A stretch of 56,327 nt of DNA from a virus (taxonomy: Duplodnaviria; Caudoviricetes). Within the stretch, counting starts at the first letter, position 1; each line of letters starts with the position of its first letter. Below, piece after piece: positions 11,000 to 47,833 of the stretch. The position numbers and the translations under genes are program-made. Location: positions 1 through 56,327 of IMG/VR virus record IMGVR_UViG_3300030090_002290, one strand, 5' to 3'. A model generated the notes under the pieces. It was not told the origin of the DNA. It saw only the letters and a program-made list of their open reading frames with translations, and searched no databases.

Positions 11000-13900
11000 G
11001 TGGCTGAACCTTTTGATGACCCGGTTTATGATTATCTATACGGTTCTCGAAGCGCAGCACCGACACCTTTAGATGACTATGATCCTTCTTTACCTGAAAC
11101 ATTCCGCAGAGGGATGGTGGCAGGTGCAGAAGGGTTAGGCGCGGATTTAAATTATTTTGCCGCGCTAGGTAATAGTCTTATAGGGGACGAAGAGGGTGTA
11201 GCAAAACGTATACAAGCGGCTCGTGCTGATGAAACGGCTGCTGCTGATACTCTTGGTTCTTTACAGCGTTTTGATGAATTTTGGGATGAACCCACTTTTG
11301 ATGGGTTTATGACGCAGATTTTTAAAGGTACAGGCCAGCTTGTACCTTTTGCAATAACTTCTATAGCAGGCGCGGGTGCAGGTGCGCTTGCAGGTGTAGG
11401 CGTAAAGTTAGGTACTGAAGGTACAAAGTACGCTGCAAAAAAGATAATAAAAGATTCGTTAGAAAATACCGCGAAAGGTATAGCTACCCCCGAAGAAAAA
11501 GATATTGCGGAAGGCGCGTTTAACTTAGCCAAACGTGCTCGTTATGGCGCGTACGGTGGAGCAGGTATATCCGAGTTTGCACCTCTTTCTGGTTCTAATT
11601 TTGCTGAAGCACTAGAGTCAGGTGAAGACCCTAATGACCCTGTAGTTGCTTTTAGGGCAGCGGCTTTAGGCATACCCCAAGCTGCAATAGGCGTTGGGGG
11701 TGAAGCCTTAATGGTGCGGCAGATGGCGAAACGAGCTGGTAAATTAGCAGGAGGCAGAAAAGAAACTGTATACGGACGGCTATCTGAAGACTTAACTAGT
11801 GGCTTTTTAAAAGCGGGTACTACAGAAGCAATCGCAGAAACAGCGCAAGAAGGGCTAGCAGTTTTAAACCGCGCTGAAATGGATGACACTTTTACTGCAC
11901 AAGATGCAAAACTGCGATTAGCAGAATCGGCTTTTGCAGCATTCTTTGGCGGCGGCGCTTTTGGCGCGGCAGGTTCTACGGCTGCAGGTAGCGTACGTGA
12001 AATTAGGAACATCCCAGATAATGTTAGTGCAAAAGCTCGAGATTATTTAAACCAAGGTAAAGAGGCAATTACTGAACAAATTATAAACAATCAGTTTTTG
12101 CGTGGTAAAAAACAAGGTTTTCCTGATCCAGAACCTCCTAGCGCCGTAAATGCACAGCTTGACTTAATGTTCAAAGATCGTCACCCGCGAAAAGCAGTGT
12201 GGGTGGCTGGCCAAGAGGCGATGTTTAAAGCTACAGAAACCCCAAGAAAGGTAATACTTTCATCTCCTTCGGGTAATAGAGAAGCGTGGGTTGCATTTGT
12301 CCCTGGGAAAGGAACAATTGTTTCCCCCTTTGTAGACATTGTAGAAGAAGTTGTAGCGGGTAACGCATCTGAAGATGTATTACAGGCAGCGTTAGGCATG
12401 AGCGGGACTAAACCGCCTGATGCAGATAGAGTTGTCCAAGCTTTTGATGGTAAGGGTAATGAGGTTTTTAGTGAAGTAACTAATGCTGATGGGGAGGCAG
12501 GGGCAAAAGTAGCTGCAGAAGCTCAGCGAACAGAAGAAGGTTCTACACGAACTGTCTCACCAGAACAGGCTCTTTCAGAGCGAGCGGAAAAGTACCGAAC
12601 AGAAGTTCCCCCGGAGGTTCTTGAAAACTTGGCAATGCTAGAGGAAGGTACTCGACAGGCGGGGCCTGATGTAACCGACGCTCAACTTGATGCAACTGAA
12701 ACTGTGCAAGACGCAGTTCAAAGAAGAAGAGATAATATTGAAGCGGATAAAGCAGCTCAGCTAGAACAAAATAAAAATACTCTTAGAGATCAAGCACAAA
12801 CAGGTCAGGTAAATGAGGCTTTACTTAGTGATACTGAGGCTTTAGTAGCGGAGATAGAAACTCCTCTTTCTGACGCGTTAGATAAAATCGATGCTGGTTT
12901 AAGGGAACTACAAGAAAAGAAAGGTGAACCAAAAGAATCACCTATGAGACAACGAACAATTCGTGAAAGAGTAAATGACGTTGTTGAATTGATTGAAGTT
13001 TTAACTCCACGCCAAGAAGTTTTAGAGGGCAACAGGCAAGTAAGACAATCTCCTAGATTACTAGCAAGTGGGTTTTTTACAGATCTAACTACGGGTCTTA
13101 CTTTTAGAAGAGTAGACATGCAGGACCAAGAAAGAGTTAGTTCTGTAGAGGAAATTGAAGCGCAGCGTCGTCGCCCTGAGCCTACACCAGAAGCACCTTT
13201 ACAAGCAGGGCCAGAGCTTAGAGCGCAAGCAAGATTATCGGAAGTACGAGAAGAGTTTGGGACTCGCCTTAATGCTTTAGCTAAAGGGGATTCTGATGTA
13301 GCAGCTGTAGCAAAAGCTTATAACAAAAGGTATCAAGCAACTGATGTTGAGGGTAAGAACCTTATCCTTAAAACAATATTTGATATGAAAGAAGAGCTTG
13401 AACGATCTCTTGGGCGGGGGATTGAAGATCGTTTAACTATGCAGGATCTTGAAGCAGAACAAGAAGCAGGGCAGTTTTCAGAAGATGTAGAAGGAGTAGA
13501 ACAGGAAGTAGCTGATCCGACTTCTGGCATGGAAGAGCAAAACTTACGAGTAGTGTTTGAAATGTCTTTCGAGCAAGCCCCGTTAGTAAAACCAAAGTTT
13601 GAACCTGAGCCATTTAATGAAGATGTTGAGGCGCTACAACGCGAATATGAACAGCTATTTGGTAGCGAAAACCCTGCGGATGCGGCATTTGATGCCGCCG
13701 ATGAGGGGCTTGGTTACACTGAAGAGCAGCTCCAATTTTTAGAGGCTAGGGAAGCTAACGAAGTTACAGTAGGCAGACCACCTAATTTGGACAATCTTTC
13801 TACTGGGACAGAAGAAGGGGTAGGTCAAATTAAACTTTACCCCCGTGATATGCCAGCAGCACGAGCTGCTTTTATGGAAGAGTTTGAGGGCAGGTTTTCG

Positions 13901-16900
13901 CCAAACTGGGAGGACGGCGGGTTTTGGCAGCGTATGACTCCTGCAATGCTTAAACAATTAGTTAATCAAAGACGAGCAGGTAAAGAAGTTGAGATAGATC
14001 CACCCGGACCTCTTAACCCTGGCAGATACCTTATAACAGTCCTTTCATCTGATGCTGAATTGTTTAGGCATAAACCAAGAAAAAAACCTGAACAGCTGTT
14101 AACCCTAGACGAATTTTTGTTGGCTGAAGTAAATGCAGCAAAAAGTAGTAAGTTTGCAGCAGAGAGCGGCGTAAGTATTACTGACCCCGATGGCAACATA
14201 GCAAAAGTAAACTTAGTAGATATTATTTCTGCAGGTAAACGGCTGTTGGAAACAAGACTCCAGCAAGATTTTGTTGCCGCTTCAGATGGGCAGGCTTTAA
14301 TGGAGATGTTTAACGAGTTAATAGTTAATGGCTATGACATTTCTTTTGATCTTGAGGGCAGAGATAGAGCCGGTAAAAAAATAATCAAACCAGTATCTAT
14401 AACTAAACAAACAACTTTTACTGCAAAACATATTGTTGATGAAGACAGTATGGCTACCGATTTAGAACAACAAACAAGAACCCGTAGAGGGGCGCAACCT
14501 AATAGATCTCAACTAGAGTTGTTTACTTTAGATGGTAAAGCAGTAGGCGAACAAACTACCTTTAAAAGTACGATTTTAAGAGAGTTAGCTGCTCATCAGC
14601 AAAGAATTAGTAGATGGTTTGTAAGTAACTCGGACGTAGATCCTAACGACCCAACGAGTAGAATTCTTCGGAAGGACGCAAACAAAACAAGACCTGTAGC
14701 CCCTCGGTATTTAAACCCAATACTTAAAACAGCTGCTTCTTCAAAGAGTGACCCTTATCTTAAAGATGATAAAGGTAAAGCGAGGAAGATTCCTTTAAGA
14801 AAAATTATAAGTAAAAACTTAAAGATGTCGCGCGAAGAAGATTTAGGCACAGTAAAAAGACCTACTTCTTTTGCTACAGTTACTGATGCAAACAGGTCTT
14901 ATCTACAAGACCGTGCAGAGGTAAGGCTAGGACGTGAAATACTCGAAGAAGATTTCGAGGCAGAACTTGAAAAAGAGCTAGGGATTCAGGAAGGACTTTA
15001 TGAACGTGAAGTAGCAGGGGTCCCTGGATTAGATGAAAAGGGAGAACCAGAGGGTAGTGGTAGTAGGCTTCTTGACGAATCTCCTGACGTTCCTTACGCC
15101 TACTACGACACAGAAGTACCAACAGTAATAGAAGGGGAAAGGGCAAAGACTTCGTTGTCTTTTATATTTGGGGAACCCGAGTCTACTAATGCGAATGTAA
15201 ATACTGTAGACGTTGTAAAAAGGATGATTGGAACTTTAAGTATAAGAAAGCCCACGGGTGTTATCTTTGCTTCGCAATTAGATGCTTTATCACCAGATCA
15301 AATTAGACAAAGGTTTCGTGATGCTAGAGTAGCCGATAAAATGATCGAGCTAAAAGATGAAATGGCGGCAAGCCAAGGAAGTGATTTAGGCCGAGCTGTT
15401 ACTTATAAAAATTCTCATTTTATTCTTGTAGACGATGTAAATACTGGTAATGAGCTTGGTACGGCTTTAGTACTTGCTCATGAAATAGGTCATCTTTTTC
15501 TAAACGAACAACAATCTGAGCTGTTAAATAAACCTATCTATAGAAAAATAATCCGTGCTTTTAAAAACCGGGATAAGTCTATAGAAGGCTACAGAGGTGA
15601 ACTTGCTTTTGAAGAATGGTTTGCGGATCAAGTAGCTAAATGGGGTAGCCAAGAGTTTATAAAGTCAAAGCCTAAAAATGTTGTAGAAAGCACGTTTAAA
15701 AAGATTGCAGCTAAACTTAGAGCTATGTTTAAAGCATTAGTGCCCTTCTTGCAACGAAGGTTTAAAGGCCCAGTTGAAGTTTCTGTTGAGACATTTATAG
15801 AACAGGTTGTAGAAGCTAATCGTACTAATAACGCAACACTAGTTGCAGATCCAGCTTCTATAGCAACGTGGGAAGAAAAAGCTTTAGTTAAAGCTATACG
15901 CGAAGAAACTGAAAATACTCCAGGGGCAGTAAGTTTTTCTAAGAACCTATTTGAACAAGCAAAACTTGCAATAAACAATAAGGTTAGAGGGATGCAGCCC
16001 TTACGCAATGTGTTCTTTACTGCTAATAAAAACCTTCGAATGATTGGAGATTTTATTAAAGATGCTAAAGGCAAAGAAACAACAACACGTGTAGGGGAAC
16101 TTATTGCAGATATGTTCTACCGTGAAGCGGGTGCTCGTACAGGTGGTAGTAGAATGGGCATGTTGCAAGAAGCTGACGTACAGAATCGTGAAATTGAAGA
16201 GCGATTTAGAAGGGAGATAGGAGCTTTAGATTCACCAGAAGTTATAACTGCAATGGAAGCTGCCAGTAGTGAAACACCTACCACTCAACTTGAAAACGAG
16301 TTAGCCGTTAAGATTCGGGTTTTCTTAGAAGATCTCCATAAGAATTATATCCAACCTTCACAAAAAGGATTTGGACGAAATCAAAAAGGGAGGATTGATT
16401 TCCAACAGAATTATTTTCCTGTTGTTCTAAATCTGCAGGAAATAGCCCACAACGGAGAAGCATTTGCACAACTTCTTCTTAGGGCAGAAGAGCAAAGAAA
16501 ACCGTTTGCTAGTTCTGAGGACAGAATAAAAGCATTAAACGCAATTAGAAAATCACTTGCAAGAATTGTTAAGTATCAAGATGTAGTTGAGAACTCTGAG
16601 TTAAATATAGACGAAGTAGACCCCGCAAGTGTAAGAGAAGAGAAACGACGTTTAACAGCTCTTGTATCCAGAGAAGAGTTAATACAAAAGGGCTTTGCGC
16701 TTCCACCTGTTGAAGCCTTTATGATGTACAAAAAACAGTTAGTAAAACGTGTTGAGTGGAATAGCTCAACAAAAAGTGCTACAGGTACTGATCGTTTACA
16801 ACCTCTTTTAGACCAACTTGATGCGAAAGATAGAGCGTACGCTCAAGAAATTATTAATGGTTATTTAGGGTACGGTTATGAACCTATGTCAGAGAAACGT

Positions 16901-17950
16901 CGCAAGTGGCAAAGTAGATTACTGGCGGCTCAGTACACATTACTACTACCGTTTGCAGCTATCGGTTCACTTCCCGAATTAGCTGGCCCGATTATATTCT
17001 CTAAAGAATTTAATGGTTTTGAGATGGCCTTTAGACAATTAAAGCAAGGTCTTTCCCAAGAAGAAGCTCGAAAAATGGCAGAAGAAATAGGGCTTGTACA
17101 AGACGGGGCTATATCTAATGCTTGGATGAGTGTTACAGAACGTGAACACATGGACGAAGCATCTCGTGCTTGGACTGATAAATATTTTAAATATACAGGG
17201 CTAGAGTTCTTTACAAACTTTAGTCGTAGTTTTGCTACTGGCATGTCAGTGCAGTTTTTACTTCATCATGCTGATTTACCTAACTCAAGGTCAGCCCGTT
17301 ACTTGGATTCTTTAGGGGTTACACCAGCCCAGATAAAAGCATGGGATGAAGGTGGACGCACATTTGAAAGCCAAGAAGGTAAAGCAGTTAAGTTTGCAAT
17401 ACAGAAATTTGTCGAAAGTTCCATACTTAGACCAAACGCAGCAGAACGACCTGTATGGGCTTCTGATCCTAGATGGGCTTTAGTGTGGCAGTTAAAGTCA
17501 TACTTCTACGCTTTTTATACAAAAATAATCGGAGGTATAAGAAGAGAGATTGGAATAAGAATGGCTGAAACTGAAGGGCGGCAACGTGTGTACGGAGCAG
17601 CAGGTATGTTGGCACTGTCAGCAGTGGCTCTATTACCTCTTGCTATGGTAGGTATGGAGTTACGTGAGTATGCCAAGACAGGTTTGGCGTTCTTTACTAC
17701 TTTAGGGCAAAGCGAAAAAGATTACTTTAGAACCGATAATATGGAGTGGGGCGCATACCTTGGAGAGGCTCTCGATAAAACAGGTGTATATGGGCCTCTT
17801 TCAATTGTTTCTATGGCGTATCGAAGTGGGCAATGGAACGGCCCTGCGGCAGGTTTAGCCGCTTTATTAGGCCCAACCGCTGAATCAGTCGAAGCAGTCT
17901 TCGGGCGCGGAGAGTTTGATAGGCTCGTTCCTGCTGCAGCTATCTTATAA
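11000..17950 (+). CDS. Giant internal virion (DNA ejection / polyvalent-type) protein with zincin motif
   Basis: 2316 aa; G/A-rich hydrophobic N-terminal region; LAHEIGH...EEWFAD metallopeptidase motif; hydrophobic C-terminus. Confidence 0.7.
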   Translation: MAEPFDDPVYDYLYGSRSAAPTPLDDYDPSLPETFRRGMVAGAEGLGADLNYFAALGNSLIGDEEGVAKRIQAARADETAAADTLGSLQRFDEFWDEPTFDGFMTQIFKGTGQLVPFAITSIAGAGAGALAGVGVKLGTEGTKYAAKKIIKDSLENTAKGIATPEEKDIAEGAFNLAKRARYGAYGGAGISEFAPLSGSNFAEALESGEDPNDPVVAFRAAALGIPQAAIGVGGEALMVRQMAKRAGKLAGGRKETVYGRLSEDLTSGFLKAGTTEAIAETAQEGLAVLNRAEMDDTFTAQDAKLRLAESAFAAFFGGGAFGAAGSTAAGSVREIRNIPDNVSAKARDYLNQGKEAITEQIINNQFLRGKKQGFPDPEPPSAVNAQLDLMFKDRHPRKAVWVAGQEAMFKATETPRKVILSSPSGNREAWVAFVPGKGTIVSPFVDIVEEVVAGNASEDVLQAALGMSGTKPPDADRVVQAFDGKGNEVFSEVTNADGEAGAKVAAEAQRTEEGSTRTVSPEQALSERAEKYRTEVPPEVLENLAMLEEGTRQAGPDVTDAQLDATETVQDAVQRRRDNIEADKAAQLEQNKNTLRDQAQTGQVNEALLSDTEALVAEIETPLSDALDKIDAGLRELQEKKGEPKESPMRQRTIRERVNDVVELIEVLTPRQEVLEGNRQVRQSPRLLASGFFTDLTTGLTFRRVDMQDQERVSSVEEIEAQRRRPEPTPEAPLQAGPELRAQARLSEVREEFGTRLNALAKGDSDVAAVAKAYNKRYQATDVEGKNLILKTIFDMKEELERSLGRGIEDRLTMQDLEAEQEAGQFSEDVEGVEQEVADPTSGMEEQNLRVVFEMSFEQAPLVKPKFEPEPFNEDVEALQREYEQLFGSENPADAAFDAADEGLGYTEEQLQFLEAREANEVTVGRPPNLDNLSTGTEEGVGQIKLYPRDMPAARAAFMEEFEGRFSPNWEDGGFWQRMTPAMLKQLVNQRRAGKEVEIDPPGPLNPGRYLITVLSSDAELFRHKPRKKPEQLLTLDEFLLAEVNAAKSSKFAAESGVSITDPDGNIAKVNLVDIISAGKRLLETRLQQDFVAASDGQALMEMFNELIVNGYDISFDLEGRDRAGKKIIKPVSITKQTTFTAKHIVDEDSMATDLEQQTRTRRGAQPNRSQLELFTLDGKAVGEQTTFKSTILRELAAHQQRISRWFVSNSDVDPNDPTSRILRKDANKTRPVAPRYLNPILKTAASSKSDPYLKDDKGKARKIPLRKIISKNLKMSREEDLGTVKRPTSFATVTDANRSYLQDRAEVRLGREILEEDFEAELEKELGIQEGLYEREVAGVPGLDEKGEPEGSGSRLLDESPDVPYAYYDTEVPTVIEGERAKTSLSFIFGEPESTNANVNTVDVVKRMIGTLSIRKPTGVIFASQLDALSPDQIRQRFRDARVADKMIELKDEMAASQGSDLGRAVTYKNSHFILVDDVNTGNELGTALVLAHEIGHLFLNEQQSELLNKPIYRKIIRAFKNRDKSIEGYRGELAFEEWFADQVAKWGSQEFIKSKPKNVVESTFKKIAAKLRAMFKALVPFLQRRFKGPVEVSVETFIEQVVEANRTNNATLVADPASIATWEEKALVKAIREETENTPGAVSFSKNLFEQAKLAINNKVRGMQPLRNVFFTANKNLRMIGDFIKDAKGKETTTRVGELIADMFYREAGARTGGSRMGMLQEADVQNREIEERFRREIGALDSPEVITAMEAASSETPTTQLENELAVKIRVFLEDLHKNYIQPSQKGFGRNQKGRIDFQQNYFPVVLNLQEIAHNGEAFAQLLLRAEEQRKPFASSEDRIKALNAIRKSLARIVKYQDVVENSELNIDEVDPASVREEKRRLTALVSREELIQKGFALPPVEAFMMYKKQLVKRVEWNSSTKSATGTDRLQPLLDQLDAKDRAYAQEIINGYLGYGYEPMSEKRRKWQSRLLAAQYTLLLPFAAIGSLPELAGPIIFSKEFNGFEMAFRQLKQGLSQEEARKMAEEIGLVQDGAISNAWMSVTEREHMDEASRAWTDKYFKYTGLEFFTNFSRSFATGMSVQFLLHHADLPNSRSARYLDSLGVTPAQIKAWDEGGRTFESQEGKAVKFAIQKFVESSILRPNAAERPVWASDPRWALVWQLKSYFYAFYTKIIGGIRREIGIRMAETEGRQRVYGAAGMLALSAVALLPLAMVGMELREYAKTGLAFFTTLGQSEKDYFRTDNMEWGAYLGEALDKTGVYGPLSIVSMAYRSGQWNGPAAGLAALLGPTAESVEAVFGRGEFDRLVPAAAIL

Positions 17951-33152: not shown

Positions 33153-33425
33153 CTACGACTTCGATTCTTTGAATGTAATTTCTCTTACATTAGTTTCTTC
33201 CAAATGACTTATCATTTCTGCTAAGTACCACCCTGCTTTTTTGATACAGGTTACTTGTTCCTGTGTGGTATCGTGCTTGGAATCCCATCGCCATAAGTAT
33301 TTAAGAATGTTTCCTTTGAGGTATCCTAAGTATGCCTCTTCGGTCATGCTTTCTTTTATGGCTTCTATAGCCTCAATGTTTCCACGTTTGTAGTGGTCAG
33401 GGTTTATTTTGTCTTGTGCTTCCAT
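33153..33425 (-). CDS. DUF3310 (SaV / T7 gp1.7-like) protein
   Basis: INPDHY...IEAIEAI...GNILKYLWR...KAGWYL. Confidence 0.85.
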   Translation of the reverse strand: MEAQDKINPDHYKRGNIEAIEAIKESMTEEAYLGYLKGNILKYLWRWDSKHDTTQEQVTCIKKAGWYLAEMISHLEETNVREITFKESKS

Positions 33426-42491: not shown

Positions 42492-42699
42492 CTTGTTCGT
42501 CCTTAGCATCCTGCTCTTGTCGGTGTGCGTACACACTTGCTTCGATCTGCTGAAAGTTTTTGACTATATCATTGTGCAGCTCGGGCATTCTACTTTTTAA
42601 CCAGACAAATGTGTACTGCAGTTTTTCGTAAGAGTTAGAATCCTGGTCAAGATGAGGTTCAATCTTGTTAGATTCTTCTAGGTATTCTTTTTTGTCCAT
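42469..42699 (-). CDS. Hypothetical protein
   Basis: ORF track; probable start MDKKEY. Confidence 0.6.
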   Translation of the reverse strand: MDKKEYLEESNKIEPHLDQDSNSYEKLQYTFVWLKSRMPELHNDIVKNFQQIEASVYAHRQEQDAKDEQDVNNPRF

Positions 42700-43190
42700 T
42701 AGTAATCGCTTCTCCAATAAGTGTTGTTGTAATCCGGGTCTTGTATTTCTGTTGTATCGATGTCTCCGATAGTGAAAGCTTCATCGGTACATTCTAAATC
42801 GTATGAAAATATTTCAAGCCCTCCTCCTTCTTCCCCTGTGTCTATGTAAACCAGGAGTGTATCTACACCTTGTAGCTCCCATGTTTCCACATCCTCTGGT
42901 GAATAACCTTCTGGCAAAGTGATCTTTGTTGTGGCGTAAGATGTTGCTCGATGCTCAACAATAACTTCATAGTTCCTGGATCTGTCAGTAGGTGTGCGTA
43001 TAGCAAACATCGAATGATTAGTTTGCTTTGATGGTATGAATGTTGATTCACAATCCGGGCATATTAAGAATCCATCCCGGCTGAAAAAATCTAAATCACA
43101 CTCAACAAATGTTGGACCCATATCGTAGCCGCATTCACGGCACATCCATTCAGATAGTTCTTTGACTGCTACTGTTCTACCCACATCCAC
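42699..43190 (-). CDS. Zn-ribbon protein with acidic C-terminus
   Basis: CREC and CPDC pairs. Confidence 0.6.
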   Translation of the reverse strand: MDVGRTVAVKELSEWMCRECGYDMGPTFVECDLDFFSRDGFLICPDCESTFIPSKQTNHSMFAIRTPTDRSRNYEVIVEHRATSYATTKITLPEGYSPEDVETWELQGVDTLLVYIDTGEEGGGLEIFSYDLECTDEAFTIGDIDTTEIQDPDYNNTYWRSDY

Positions 43191-43659: not shown

Positions 43660-44610
43660 TTAACCTGCTGCTTGTTGTGGTTCAGCCCAACTCTCTTCGT
43701 TACGATCTTTGTCGTACCATCGAAACCAGTAATAGCCTGCGCCATCTTGAGAATCGACTTGCTTGAGGAACAACTCAAAGATCGTAACTGCTGTTGGTAT
43801 ATCAAAGTCTGTTATAGCTTCGATTACCGGGCCTTCGAAATCACCAAGACAAGGTACAGTCATACTAGTTTGATGAGGATGTAGTTGACCTCGTGATACA
43901 TAACCTGCCACGCGGTCTGCACTGTCTACGGCACGAAACCTAATTACTATAGATCCGCTTGCGTACCGTGTCATATCGATGTACATCGCAGGTATGTTGA
44001 TGAATACTTCTTCACCGTACTCATCAACAGGGTATCGTTCTTCATCGATGTTGTTTACTCGTGCACGAGTTGGTTTGGTTTTGATAGAGAACTTGTATCT
44101 GTTGCCACCCTGGTCAGGGAACTCTCTGACTTTTAGGCTGTTAGATACATACAGCTCACTGTTACGCATTTGATGATCCCAGACGTCAGTAGCATAGATA
44201 GTAGATTCGTTGGCTTTTGCTCGGAGCCGTTCAAGATTCTTTTTAACAAAGAATAATTGTTGTTTGTATTTTGCTTGTTCGTTTTCTATCGAGCTTATGC
44301 GTCTGATTGTATCTGCTAGATCATCTGAGACGTTATGAACATTACGTTCTAAACAGGCTTCTAATGATTCAGCAAGCTCTGCGTTTCCGCCTGCTATTTG
44401 TAATAGCTGCCAACGTAAACGATTGTTAGTTTGGAAAGTTTGAGCTGCAATAATCTCCCTGTTTAGCTGCCGTCTTTGTATACGTTCAAAACGTACATTG
44501 TTGTGCAGTCTTGTATAAGATCGTTGCGCTGCTTTAAGTTTTTCTTCTTCAGTAGTTATCAAAGAAGCATTGGGAAAAATCTCAAAAGTTTTTACTAGTC
44601 TGCCAGCCAT
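43660..44610 (-). CDS. Prokaryotic E2-like (ubiquitin-conjugating fold) protein with N-terminal coiled-coil
   Basis: LHPHQTSMTVPCLG resembles the E2 HPN/HPH...CL catalytic motif; in an operon with JAB, E1 and Ubl. Confidence 0.7.
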   Translation of the reverse strand: MAGRLVKTFEIFPNASLITTEEEKLKAAQRSYTRLHNNVRFERIQRRQLNREIIAAQTFQTNNRLRWQLLQIAGGNAELAESLEACLERNVHNVSDDLADTIRRISSIENEQAKYKQQLFFVKKNLERLRAKANESTIYATDVWDHQMRNSELYVSNSLKVREFPDQGGNRYKFSIKTKPTRARVNNIDEERYPVDEYGEEVFINIPAMYIDMTRYASGSIVIRFRAVDSADRVAGYVSRGQLHPHQTSMTVPCLGDFEGPVIEAITDFDIPTAVTIFELFLKQVDSQDGAGYYWFRWYDKDRNEESWAEPQQAAG

Positions 44611-45512
44611 TATCTAAAACCCCCTTTGTTTTCTAAATGGTGTTGTCTGTTGTACTCCTCTTCGAAGAGTGTTCTTTCTTCAGTGTCCATCTCATCTATC
44701 TCAGTTTGAGTTATCTCAATGACATCTCCTGTTGCAGGGTTTCTGAAGATCAGATCCTCTTCATCTGCTGCGCCCCAGTAGCTGCTGTAATAATCTGAAG
44801 TATCTATGAGAGTTGAACCAGGAGTATTCTGATTGTTGAACGTCATGTTTACTTGCTGGTTTAGTGCAGGCTTTTTTACAGTAGAGAAAGATGCTTTCTT
44901 TACGTTGGCCTTTACCAGTTTGTCTATGCGTTTGCGTAGTTCTTTATTTACCGGAGCAGGCATAGGTCCGTTCCATACACACTGATGAGAGCAGTTGTTA
45001 TCTACGTCATATACATCAACCTTGGAATGTCCTTGCTTGTTGTATATGCCACGGATAAATAACTTACAGCCATTGTCCAGGAACTCTTCTACTTGCATTT
45101 CGTCCTGGGCCGAGGGGCTAACGCTCATGTTTACATGTGAGTGTCCCCAATAGATTAGCTTCTCTGATTCTTTACCTGATTCTTCCAGCTCAACAGCTAG
45201 ATCACATAAAGTTTCAGCAGCTATATCGGTCTCTGCTCCATGTACCTTTTGCTTAGGTATGTAGATGTTAGTGATAGTAAAGGAAGTAATTACTCCTTTG
45301 TCGTTTGTTTCAGTCTCAACCAGACCGAGCCAACCAACTTCTGTAGATACAGAATCTACAAGGTATCGAATAGTTTCCCAGGCACTGTCTGTGTAAAACA
45401 CTTTCGGTGCTTCCGGGTATTGGTATTCGAACAGTTGCTCAGTCTCAGGAGAGTCTGAAGTTGTATCAAAGCTAGCGCGTTTGGAAGCTTTGTATTGAGT
45501 ATAAGAAATCAT
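44610..45512 (-). CDS. JAB/MPN (JAMM) metallopeptidase
   Basis: EVGWLG...WGHSHVNMSVSPSAQD fits E-xn-HSH-x7-S-x2-D. Confidence 0.85.
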   Translation of the reverse strand: MISYTQYKASKRASFDTTSDSPETEQLFEYQYPEAPKVFYTDSAWETIRYLVDSVSTEVGWLGLVETETNDKGVITSFTITNIYIPKQKVHGAETDIAAETLCDLAVELEESGKESEKLIYWGHSHVNMSVSPSAQDEMQVEEFLDNGCKLFIRGIYNKQGHSKVDVYDVDNNCSHQCVWNGPMPAPVNKELRKRIDKLVKANVKKASFSTVKKPALNQQVNMTFNNQNTPGSTLIDTSDYYSSYWGAADEEDLIFRNPATGDVIEITQTEIDEMDTEERTLFEEEYNRQHHLENKGGFR

Positions 45513-46201
45513 ATGTTGTCCTTAGTCGAAAACATCATAGGTTTAAAGAACACATCCAGTTGAGCTGTGGCACACCCGTCATCCAATAGGAAGTTCATGA
45601 ACTCCCATACTGCTAGGTTTGCAATGAGCGATGCGGTAGGGCCAACTGATATGCTGGTTCCACATGGAGACATTTCCCCTTCGTCATCGCTGATTAGTGA
45701 GTCGTACCACCGTTGTAACTGAACGCTGTTTGTAGGTGAGAAGTGATATACGTTACCGTGCGTCGATGCCATGCGAGTCTCAAAGATTTGAAACAGCTCA
45801 CTGTTTGGTCCTTTGTCCTGTGCATCTACAATCTGACGGCGTGATGCCATTGTGTCAGTCAGCAGGAAAAGGAAGCCATTGAACTTGCGTTGATCTATAC
45901 GCTCGTTGACGAACTGCATTGGCAGCTGGTCTTCGGCTATGCCTAGTTTCATAGAAGCCAAACTCTTGAGAGCTTGAACTTTAGGCACACCGATATGCTC
46001 ATGCATGTATGCCTGGTTAGCTAGGTTGTGTGCTTCTACTTTGTCGTAGTCATACACGCTGATGTTAGTCAGACCTAGCTCGATAAGCGACATGAACACT
46101 CGTGACCCAGTTGCACCTGCGCCAACGATATGTATTGGGTAGTTGCTGTACTCCCCAGCACGGAATACGGAATCGTGTCGAATGGTCGAGAGTAAAGTCA
46201 T
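45509..46201 (-). CDS. ThiF/E1-like Ubl-activating adenylyltransferase
   Basis: IVGAGATGS, DYDKVEAHNLANQ, K, LTD...R, candidate catalytic SPCG; start MTLLS after RBS GGAGG. Confidence 0.9.
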   Translation of the reverse strand: MTLLSTIRHDSVFRAGEYSNYPIHIVGAGATGSRVFMSLIELGLTNISVYDYDKVEAHNLANQAYMHEHIGVPKVQALKSLASMKLGIAEDQLPMQFVNERIDQRKFNGFLFLLTDTMASRRQIVDAQDKGPNSELFQIFETRMASTHGNVYHFSPTNSVQLQRWYDSLISDDEGEMSPCGTSISVGPTASLIANLAVWEFMNFLLDDGCATAQLDVFFKPMMFSTKDNI

Positions 46202-46231
46202 ATAACCTCCGTTTGTTATTGGGTTGAAAAA

Positions 46232-46393
46232 CAAACCTTCCCCGCACAGAAGAAAGAAAGATTGGATTCCCTGTACTACAGTTGATAGGAGTCTAGGCCT
46301 GCAGTCAGGGCAGTCTAACTTCTGTACGAAGAAGGCTTGACCTCCCCATGCACCTTGCAAAAGAGGGAGATGAATACCTCTTGTGCATGGGGA
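46232..46393 (-). ncRNA. Tandem long hairpins between Ubl and E1 genes
   Basis: 21-bp stem 46339-46319 / 46252-46232 that is fully paired only with G-U wobbles on the minus strand; second stem 46393-46383 / 46353-46343. Confidence 0.65.
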
Positions 46394-46414
46394 AGGAGAC
46401 GGTACGGTCAGGTC

Positions 46415-46630
46415 TTAGTTACCCTTGGCACCTTGCGAGATAACTACTCGGTCTCCATCAGTCAGGGTATAACCCTGGTCAACGGTTTCAGCGCCGACTT
46501 TGATGGCTTCCGAACCAGTTGGCTCGATGCTTGCTGCACTAAGTGCATCAGCAACCGTAGCCCCCGCAGACAGAGCAACCTCTGTCACCGCACCTGGGAT
46601 GCGGATTACTTTGACGAATATTTCGTCCAT
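46415..46630 (-). CDS. Ubiquitin-like beta-grasp protein (ThiS/MoaD-like), 71 aa, C-terminus GAKGN
   Basis: GATVADAL and L.DGDRV motifs; penultimate Gly; RBS AGGAGG before ATG 46630. Confidence 0.85.
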   Translation of the reverse strand: MDEIFVKVIRIPGAVTEVALSAGATVADALSAASIEPTGSEAIKVGAETVDQGYTLTDGDRVVISQGAKGN

Positions 46631-47287: not shown

Positions 47288-47642
47288 AGCTCTGTTTCTC
47301 CCAGTGTTCGTATGCTTCCTCTGGTGTTACGAAGGTTATTAACCTTTTCAGATAGTCTAAATGTATCCAAGGTGAAGTTAATTCACCAGTGTCTATGATT
47401 GTACCGAGGCACAACGCTTTGCCTGGCACAGGATCTGCTTTGTGTTCAAGCACGAAGAAACTTTGTCCTTCGTTGTATAGGCCTTCGTCTTCAACGAATA
47501 ACGTATCCCACTGACTGTTGAATACCACACCTTCTACTCGCTCGAACCCTAATAGATTCTTTATGTCTTCTAACGAAGGGTTCTCTGGTGCAAGTACACT
47601 GTCAATGGTTCTTTGACTAGGGTCTATCAGGAATGCTTTCAC
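47277..47642 (-). CDS. DUF3846-like protein
   Basis: MKAFLIDP...LFVEDEGL...GKAL pattern. Confidence 0.6.
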   Translation of the reverse strand: MKAFLIDPSQRTIDSVLAPENPSLEDIKNLLGFERVEGVVFNSQWDTLFVEDEGLYNEGQSFFVLEHKADPVPGKALCLGTIIDTGELTSPWIHLDYLKRLITFVTPEEAYEHWEKQSYDF

Positions 47643-47833
47643 TTCTTGTCTCCCTCTGGATTTAACACAATCTTTTCTTTGTGAAATCCTGGTCTGTTTC
47701 TACTGGTTAAACCAAACAGTTTTGTTTTTTCGCTGAGTGGTCGTTCAGTACTGAGTCCACCAGGGATCCGTTTTATTTTGCCGCCTTTCTTTAAGAAAGC
47801 CTTGATGTCTTTGTCGATGTCGTCAGAGTTCAT
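47639..47833 (-). CDS. Small protein with FLKKGGKI motif (SutA-like RNAP-binding motif possible)
   Basis: I.AFL..GGKI..IP.G.S pattern. Confidence 0.5.
   Translation of the reverse strand: MNSDDIDKDIKAFLKKGGKIKRIPGGLSTERPLSEKTKLFGLTSRNRPGFHKEKIVLNPEGDKK

Follow-up and report, generated by a model that had tools for sequence, protein, structure and literature searches.

The conjugation of ubiquitin-like proteins in prokaryotes is described, in the parts of the literature cited here, as a form of host defence, represented by the Bil system, by the Cap2/Cap3 machinery of CBASS, the signalling system against phages that is based on cyclic oligonucleotides, and probably by Bub. Specifically, Bil is a bacterial anti-phage defence in which, according to the cited portions of the two reports, BilA is the ubiquitin-like protein (Ubl), BilB the conjugating enzyme (E2), BilC the JAB peptidase and BilD the activating enzyme (E1) (10.1101/2023.09.04.556158; 10.1101/2023.09.26.559546). 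On the phage side, the only pairing of a Ubl with a JAB peptidase in the cited section of Iyer 2006 (row 5) is that of the lambda/T1 tail assembly proteins I and K, where a Ubl domain accompanies a JAB-NlpC/P60 protein. Here, we describe a set of four neighbouring genes in a marine phage, the IMG/VR virus record IMGVR_UViG_3300030090_002290 (56,327 nt, linear and 96% complete according to CheckV; 'the window' denotes this whole stretch of DNA), whose products resemble a Ubl, an E1, a JAB-type (JAMM) peptidase and an E2. A full-text literature search, with most subscription journals outside its coverage, found no description of a phage-encoded E1-E2-JAB-Ubl set.

The reading of the four genes as these parts withstood the computational tests applied here. 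Judging from the sequences and the predicted structures, the set is probably (at a rough probability of 0.65) a genuine conjugation system, one that belongs to a new family carried by phages.

The four-gene set and its linkage

The genes lie side by side on the minus strand, and the set is laid out as follows in the direction of transcription:

46415..46630, minus strand: Ubl precursor of 71 aa, ending in Q-G-A-K-G70-N71 (open reading frame (ORF) and sub-threshold beta-grasp matches)
46236..46256, minus strand: terminator-like hairpin followed by a T run, within the 213 nt that separate the Ubl gene from the E1 gene (consensus scan)
45509..46201, minus strand: minimal single-domain E1 of 230 aa, a ThiF-type adenylation domain with Cys180 in SPCG (Pfam ThiF)
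44610..45512, minus strand: JAMM/MPN+ metallopeptidase of 300 aa, with a catalytic part at about residues 1-180 and then a variable tail (JAMM motif)
44215..44610, minus strand: residues 1-132 of the E2-like protein, a predicted antiparallel coiled-coil hairpin, hypervariable (AlphaFold2 (AF2) model)
43660..44214, minus strand: residues 133-316 of the E2-like protein, a predicted UBC-like domain with H244-P245-H246-x7-C254-L-G256 (AF2 model and structure comparison)

A sequence-only reading of this DNA had proposed a complete Ubl conjugation operon at this place. Its four co-oriented minus-strand ORFs are all present where it put them, and the two gene overlaps read as claimed: the JAB start overlaps the E1 stop as ATGA, while JAB stop and fourth-gene start share the letters TAATG. 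Since stop and start codons overlap at both junctions, translational coupling is suggested. The motifs that it quoted are all found as well, with one correction: in the 316-aa fourth protein it had counted HPH-x6-CLG, while seven residues (QTSMTVP) actually separate HPH from CLG. The Ubl gene starts at the ATG at 46630, 7 nt after an AGGAGG ribosome-binding site, and stops at 46415. For the E1 gene the likely start is the ATG at 46201 behind GGAGG, which yields the 230-aa protein, the maximal ORF being 283 aa. The hairpin at 46236..46256 may be an attenuator that holds expression of the enzymes below that of the Ubl; it comes from a pattern match in which the region gave 7 terminator-like sites against 3.4 expected.

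The arrangement recurs far beyond this phage. With the JAB alignment as bait, 80 loci were collected from IMG/VR and 38 from species-representative genomes (118 in all); in the search of the genomes the patterns used find close JAB relatives only, and many of the loci are near-duplicates, so that the counts refer to loci and not to independent lineages, which lessens their force. E1 and JAB occur together in 77 of the 80 viral and 37 of the 38 genome loci. All four genes were recognised with the starting profiles in 31 viral and 6 genome loci, and a gene of the E2 family was found in 108/118 loci after iteration of the E2 profile, a figure to be read with reserve as the product of iteration within a small local set. 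The E1-JAB-E2 trio is adjacent and co-oriented in 104/118 loci (on one strand in 104/104), the order being E2-JAB-E1 in 74, E1-JAB-E2 in 29 and E2-E1-JAB in 1, and in 98 of these 104 no more than 200 nt separate E2 from JAB. Because the trio recurs in this adjacent and co-oriented form in 104 of the 118 loci, the arrangement is not due to chance.

By title, all 38 genome loci (L087-L124) belong to metagenome-assembled genomes (MAGs) and none to an isolate. They are spread over very different phyla, including Thorarchaeota and an archaeon bin from horse faeces, and many of them are on phage-sized contigs; in one MAG locus (L087) the set is followed by the same polymerase and primase as in the window. 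This suggests that the MAG loci stem from phage contigs that ended up in the bins of cellular genomes, or from prophages. Relatives are also present in cultured phages, as in the following two regions:

Xanthomonas phage PhiXhv-12 (L005), 140754-145004: E1 relative next to an 892-aa protein with HPH..CLG
Flavobacterium phage FpV4 (L006), 63878-66948: E1 relative next to a 423-aa protein with the JAMM motif; in the FpV4 group the E1 follows a protein with this motif

In the Xanthomonas/Erwinia jumbo phages the E1, which is annotated as 'thiamine biosynthesis protein', follows the 892-aa HPH...CLG protein. The annotation of cultured-phage E1s as 'thiamine biosynthesis protein ThiF' is probably misleading, and the existence of relatives in cultured phages (PhiXhv-12 and its kin, FpV4 and its kin) makes the question of protein tagging by phages directly testable.

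The predicted activating enzyme and peptidase

The E1 carries the motifs GAGATG, YDYDKVEAHNLANQ and SPCG, and it matches Pfam ThiF (PF00899) with 70.7 bits against a cut-off of 28.1, which confirms its identification as a ThiF/E1 protein. The NCBIfam equivalogs all score far below their cut-offs (ThiF 58.1 against 159, PRTRC_ThiF 32.1 against 144.75), as does the NCBIfam model 6A-MBL cap2_3 (8.9e-14). Because the Pfam cut-off is passed and the NCBIfam cut-offs are missed, the protein can be placed in the ThiF superfamily and in no curated subfamily. Among the PHROGs it matches three families without an assigned function, and in PADLOC it matches the CBASS 'E1-E2' models (best 1.8e-9). When a profile of 35 relatives was compared with the PDB, UBA5 came first (2.8e-16; the single E1 sequence matches it with 4.2e-5), with ThiF (2.1e-14) and Uba1 (3.5e-14) behind it and further matches to MoeB, PaaA (4.2e-12), MccB (7.8e-12), Cap2 (2.5e-10) and BubCD (3.7e-9).

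In 35 E1 sequences G27, G29, D51, D53, N59, N62, Q63, K74, D116, R143, S178 and C180 are invariant, and the glycines of the nucleotide-binding loop and the acidic and basic residues among them would contact ATP/Mg. More specifically, Cys180 in SPCG is kept in 68/68 distinct E1 relatives, as expected of the predicted acceptor of the Ubl thioester. Otherwise, the protein is a bare adenylation domain, which has two cysteines only, no CxxC pair and no fused rhodanese. A complex prediction with two copies of E1 and the full-length E2, made with alignments and run without controls, gave no call for or against a complex (scores 0.30, 0.45 and 0.28 against a mark of 0.32).

The identity of the third protein as a JAMM peptidase is upheld by its motif, since E58 and H124-S125-H126-x7-S134-x2-D137 are invariant in 36/36 JAB sequences. 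Prok-JAB is the sole recurrent family among its relatives (weak in 14/36, best E 0.011), and the JAB match in PADLOC is weak too (E 0.009). There is no match in PHROGs and no PRTRC model at E <= 0.1, and the JAB profile found no peptidase among the PDB sequences, only one chance match. Relatives in the ESM Atlas are confined to viral hypothetical clusters, with Prok-JAB in 19% of the members of one of them, and comparison with a phage collection gave one weak match, to an unannotated faecal phage.

The putative modifier and its C-terminus

The QGAKGN C-terminus of the Ubl, G70 included, is found in 18/18 aligned close relatives. A family scan of these 18 members returned sub-threshold matches only, to ThiS (14/18), DUF348 (14), RnfH (12), Mut7-C (10) and SAMP2 (4). 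Among the sequences of solved structures the best matches are archaeal SAMP2 chains, at E 0.08-0.97; PHROGs and PADLOC gave no match and no PRTRC model was found at E <= 0.1.

After local profile iteration a Ubl is seen in 55/118 loci. Its tail ends in GN in 30 of them, in GN plus 1-3 residues in 12, in a G-A type in 6 and otherwise in 7. The conserved Gly is the last residue in 0/55 loci; it stands among the last four residues in 48/55 and is always capped, by 1-4 residues. A variable cap after a fixed Gly fits obligatory trimming of a precursor and explains why a JAB is the constant partner, and trimming of the Ubl before use therefore appears to be obligatory.

The same tails bear on a different chemistry, in which the E1 would act on a C-terminal Asn in the manner of MccB (through a succinimide and nucleotidylation, as in microcin C maturation) and would yield a Ubl-nucleotide product and no conjugate. 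MccB needs a C-terminal Asn; here, 42/55 Ubl tails have an Asn after the conserved Gly and 30/55 end with it, and both MccB (7.8e-12) and PaaA (4.2e-12) are among the solved relatives of the E1. However, Asn is not always terminal, for residues follow it in 12/55 loci and Ala takes its place in 6. Moreover, UBA5, ThiF and Uba1 outscore MccB, which the E1 matches over the Rossmann-type part only (query 21-94), a 230-aa E1 has no room for the extra N-terminal peptide-binding domain, and neither the JAMM peptidase nor the UBC-like partner has a role in such chemistry. We consider this explanation very improbable.

Another possibility is that the Ubl is a sulfur carrier comparable to ThiS, MoaD, CysO or PdtH, which the JAB trims and the E1 thiocarboxylates, the sulfur being passed to a small molecule or nucleic acid with the HPH-Cys protein as the acceptor or transfer enzyme. 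Indeed, trios of Ubl, E1 and JAB are typical of sulfur-transfer sets in the cited section of Iyer 2006 (rows 4a-4e), a circumstance that favours this explanation over conjugation. It is also in keeping with the presence of ThiS among the best family matches of the Ubl and of ThiF and MoeB among the close solved or curated relatives of the E1. The conserved E1 cysteine is itself found in ThiF-type enzymes as well, and a phage could borrow the sulfur enzymes of its host. Nevertheless, a Pfam scan of the 51 ORFs of the window (E <= 1e-4) detected no family concerned with sulfur transfer (such as ThiG, MoaE, rhodanese, cysteine synthase, PP-loop or desulfurase), in agreement with the statement of the sequence-only reading that thiG, moaE and other sulfur-transfer genes are absent. 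The 230-aa E1 has no fused rhodanese, the constant third partner is UBC-like by its model and has no known sulfurtransferase fold, and the Ubl ends in KG-N, whereas ThiS and MoaD end in a free GG. A sulfur carrier is therefore, in our estimate, unlikely.

The fourth protein

No Pfam, PHROG or NCBIfam family was found for the fourth protein, its PADLOC matches are noise of the coiled-coil type and no PRTRC model was found at E <= 0.1; likewise, a search of the phage collection gave no match for the nucleotides of the region or for this protein. An exhaustive profile search at E <= 1e-3 retrieved 224 relatives, most of them over the HPH-Cys region only, and at the same threshold 0/52 scanned relatives matched a Pfam family. 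The family is very divergent (15% mean column identity). P245, H246, C254, G256, D289 and G292 are nonetheless invariant in 65 diverse members, and in a wider alignment of 112 rows the His is kept in 111, the Cys in 111 and the Pro in 98, the first motif position being H in 59 or N in 47. Compared with an HPN-type motif, the third position is His, not Asn.

An AF2 model of the full-length protein, based on the 65-member alignment, reached a predicted local distance difference test score (pLDDT) of 95.2 and consists of a hairpin at residues 15-132 (helices 15-61 and 77-132) and a globular domain. Fold searches with this model found coiled-coil proteins only, and the sequence profile of the family likewise found only coiled coils among the PDB sequences. 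Because the full-length model matched coiled coils only, residues 133-316 were modelled alone (pLDDT 94.4, predicted template modelling score 0.88). This domain was compared by VIA-align with 48,161 representative chains, the 50 best rows being classed by entry title and a Z of 8 being the caution line of the tool. Among these 50 rows, 35 are ubiquitin/UBL-conjugating E2 enzymes and about 10 more are RWD, UEV or FANCL domains. The top entries (Pex4p, a 'novel ubiquitin-conjugating enzyme', UbcH10 and UbcH7) reach Z 6.4 over 121-132 of the 184 residues, with a root-mean-square deviation of 3.4-4.4, and bacterial chains come lower (BilB, 8tyz_C, Z 4.9; Cap2, Z 4.5). A structural re-comparison of the Foldseek candidates also put E2 proteins on top, namely UBE2D3 (Z 6.0), UBE2F, Ubc9, CDC34 and UFC1 (Z 4.5). 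All BFVD matches of the domain are uncharacterised phage proteins, crAss-like ones included. In the model, a helix is followed by a beta-meander, an extended HPH loop, the cysteine and three helices. The UBC domain has the same order of elements, and HPx-x7-C is the classical E2 spacing. Taken together, the comparisons support a UBC-like fold for the modelled domain; since the Z scores are under 8, the fold is supported and not proven.

Several results weigh against conjugation, in addition to the limits given above with the locus counts. No E2 model (Pfam UQ_con, Prok-E2_A-E) was found for the 65 members at E <= 10, the matches listed (25/183 families) being of coiled-coil types only, and in NCBIfam no E2 or PRTRC model was found for 65 E2 relatives among the matches listed (25/54 families). 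Foldseek of residues 133-316 against the PDB returned nothing at E <= 1e-3, and the best Z of 6.4 lies below the caution line, which makes the E2 assignment a structural and modest one. An hhalign comparison of the family with 25 Asgard UQ_con E2s fell short of significance (probability 4%, E 0.01). The one alignment that it produced sets HPH..C.G on HPN..C.G; the templates had been picked by HPN..C, so that it is not independent of the motif. The predicted position of Cys254 at the UBC active site is derived from the motif spacing and from the order of secondary-structure elements. As for the other components, the family matches of the Ubl, which consistently point to beta-grasp families, stay below the Pfam cut-offs and make the beta-grasp a candidate fold, and Pfam Prok-JAB gives the JAB 13.7 bits against a cut-off of 25.

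These points leave some room for a fourth protein that is no thioester E2, and that acts as a non-catalytic UBC/RWD/UEV-like adaptor, as the main tagging substrate or as another cysteine enzyme, with the E1 conjugating directly. Non-catalytic domains score nearly like true E2s in the structure comparison (Knl1 RWD Z 6.2, RNF25 RWD Z 5.5, Tsg101 UEV Z 4.5, and FANCL too), the protein is not identified as an E2 by any sequence model, and an inactive E2/RWD-like partner is present in operon type 6e in the cited section of Iyer 2006. However, 111/112 rows have the Cys and 111/112 the His that precedes it by eight residues, despite a mean column identity of 15%. Inactive UBC-like domains are as a rule without the cysteine. 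The spacing HPx-x7-C is also that of classical E2s, and the hhalign alignment agrees with it. A non-E2 fourth protein thus retains a small, if appreciable, probability. The claim of an E2, which the sequence-only reading had itself named beforehand as the point on which it could fall, stands in part: the model is UBC-like and the His and Cys are invariant, while the Z scores are modest and support from sequence models is lacking.

As a separate matter, the C-terminal Gly of the E2 (7/7 close relatives; C-terminus at 43660-43674, minus strand) was considered as a substrate mark similar to that of the CBASS CD-NTase (a cGAS/DncV-like nucleotidyltransferase). This candidate was dropped since the Gly is not family-wide, although a small residue is frequent at the end: of 65 members, 23 end in A and 7 in G, and of 100, 22 end in E, 21 in A and 10 in G.

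Rates of evolution within the set

Comparison of the window with a sister phage (L004) shows that the components of the set have evolved at very different rates. The polymerase, the primase and a 94-aa neighbour are 89-94% identical between the two phages, and the E1 (90%), the Ubl (97%) and the catalytic part of the JAB (88%) are conserved to a similar degree. Identity falls to 55% in the JAB tail, to 66% in the E2 domain and to 28.8% in the E2 coiled coil; it is 53% in a neighbouring 163-aa protein. With the tag and its activating enzyme fixed and the E2 coiled coil changing fast, the coiled coil behaves like a part that meets a changing partner.

Phage genome and neighbouring genes

Both the phage identity of the window and the position of the set in the replication arm, as given in the sequence-only reading, are borne out by the surrounding genes. 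The plus strand encodes both terminase subunits (small and large) and a P22-like portal, along with SU10-type adaptors, capsid and tail-fibre proteins, a holin and an M15 endolysin. Also on this strand is the gene for a 2316-aa virion protein (11000-17950), of which the last ~400 residues match PHROG 'virion structural protein' families and the remainder has no family match. The replication arm on the minus strand has genes for a helicase, a nuclease of the PD-(D/E)XK type, a primase and a DNA polymerase of family A; the polymerase gene lies ~1.1 kb away from the four-gene set, downstream of it in the direction of transcription. At the end of this arm are genes for an HNH endonuclease (PF13392; 33397-33852, minus strand) and a DUF3310 protein (33153-33425, minus strand). 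No integrase family was detected in the Pfam scan of the 51 window ORFs.

Two small neighbours of the set deserve mention. Upstream, a 64-aa protein (47639-47833, minus strand) matches the SutA RNAP-binding domain (Pfam PF20661) with 32.1 bits against a cut-off of 29.3, and this SutA-like protein may serve the phage by binding to the RNA polymerase of its host. The 163-aa protein encoded between the E2 and polymerase genes (42699-43190, minus strand) carries a CxxC...CxxC pattern near its N-terminus and has no family match; hypervariable like the E2 coiled coil, it could be a partner or a target.

Proposed mechanism and implications

If the set is a conjugation system, its action may be pictured as follows. 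The JAMM peptidase would remove Asn71 from the capped 71-aa Ubl precursor and thereby expose Gly70, which the minimal UBA5-like E1, probably as a dimer, would adenylate before taking the Ubl onto Cys180. The Ubl would then pass to Cys254 of the E2-like protein, where HPH would occupy the place of the classical HPN, and the E2 would transfer it to target lysines without a separate E3. The fast-evolving N-terminal coiled-coil hairpin of the E2 would pick the target or set the oligomeric state, and the JAMM peptidase may in addition take the tag off again. Because the set lies in the replication arm and the E2 coiled coil and the JAB tail diverge far faster than the remainder of the genome, we think that the targets are likelier to be host, competitor or replication-stage proteins than virion parts. 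As possible roles, the sequence-only reading had put forward host takeover, the countering of Ubl-based host defences and the exclusion of competing phages.

If true, this would mean that bacterial viruses also use protein tagging, much as many eukaryotic viruses exploit ubiquitin, and the history of the ubiquitin system would gain a new family of E2s as well as an E1 of unusually small size. Since the Ubl ends in A-K-G, trypsin should, going by the sequence, leave a single-glycine remnant on modified lysines, which provides a handle for the identification of targets by mass spectrometry. A wider and more speculative picture, to which we give less than even odds by a clear margin, is that of a large virus-borne class defined by a minimal E1 that bears the Cys, by a JAMM peptidase, by a Ubl that is capped throughout and by an E2 family not recognised before, which has HPH/NPH-Cys and N-terminal regions that vary, being coiled coils or larger. 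Such a class would be distinct from Bil, CBASS, Bub and PRTRC and would occur in marine podovirus-like phages, in the jumbo phages of Xanthomonas/Erwinia, in Flavobacterium phages and in gut phages, crAss-like ones included. Phages might use it offensively, to tag proteins of the host (those of its defence, perhaps) by way of the E2 recognition region, which evolves fast, in a mirror image of Bil.

Comparison with known systems

The sequence-only reading held that the four-part set matches Bil and the Cap2/Cap3 machinery of CBASS. This is true of the kinds of parts, which are analogous, and does not extend to the defining features of either system that were tested. In Bil, as far as the cited sources go, there are the same four kinds of parts (Ubl, E1, E2 and JAMM peptidase) and no E3, the BilA of type II carries up to nine residues past the conserved Gly, which the JAB removes, and the E2 is thought to pick its target directly (PMC11601596). 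However, Bil is found in bacteria and the present set in a phage. BilD is described in the cited part of PMC11601596 as a multidomain protein in which adenylation domains, inactive and active, are accompanied by a mobile Cys domain, whereas the E1 here is a single 230-aa domain with the Cys inside. The order of the Bil genes (Ubl-E2-DUB-E1, DUB being the deubiquitinase, in the cited accounts) also differs from Ubl-E1-JAB-E2 in the window and from E2-JAB-E1 or E1-JAB-E2 in its relatives. Lastly, the E2 here has an N-terminal coiled-coil hairpin, and BilB scores below eukaryotic E2s in comparison with it (Z 4.9 against 6.4).

Type II CBASS (Cap2/Cap3; types 6a/6b in the cited section of Iyer 2006) shares the E1, E2 and JAB activities with the set, and the E1 matches Cap2-type models. 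In contrast, Cap2 is a fusion of E2 and E1 whose substrate is the CD-NTase, and there is no free Ubl, while the genes here are separate and include a Ubl; no nucleotidyltransferase was detected in the Pfam scan of the 51 window ORFs. The ParB-Related, ThiF-Related Cassette (PRTRC; TIGR03734-03742) is set apart by its cut-offs, which are not reached (E1 32.1 bits against 144.75), and no ParB was detected in that scan of the 51 ORFs.

Among solved proteins, the one closest to the E1 in sequence is UBA5, a minimal E1 that serves the UFM1 pathway of eukaryotes. Both are short E1s, and the catalytic Cys of UBA5 is near the adenylation core. The match covers the N-terminal ~125 residues only, however, and the E1 here is without the CxxC pair. 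The E2 is not UFC1-like in rank either, UFC1 standing at Z 4.5 against Z 6.0 for UBE2D3.

The I and K proteins of lambda/T1 differ in that they come with no E1 and no E2 and belong to a tail gene cluster, whereas in the set described here both enzymes are present and the genes are part of the replication arm. Finally, Bub (type 6e/DUF6527 in the cited section of Iyer 2006; PMC11601596) resembles the set in combining Ubl, E1, E2 and peptidase functions, with BubCD as a distant solved relative of the E1. According to the cited part of PMC11601596, it is built from fusions (Ubl-E2, JAB-E1 and E2-E1), with a Cys-less E1, oxyesters and a DUF6527 serine protease. DUF6527 was not detected in the Pfam scan of the 51 window ORFs and, in contrast to Bub, the genes of the phage set are separate and the cysteines of both its E1 and its E2 are invariant.

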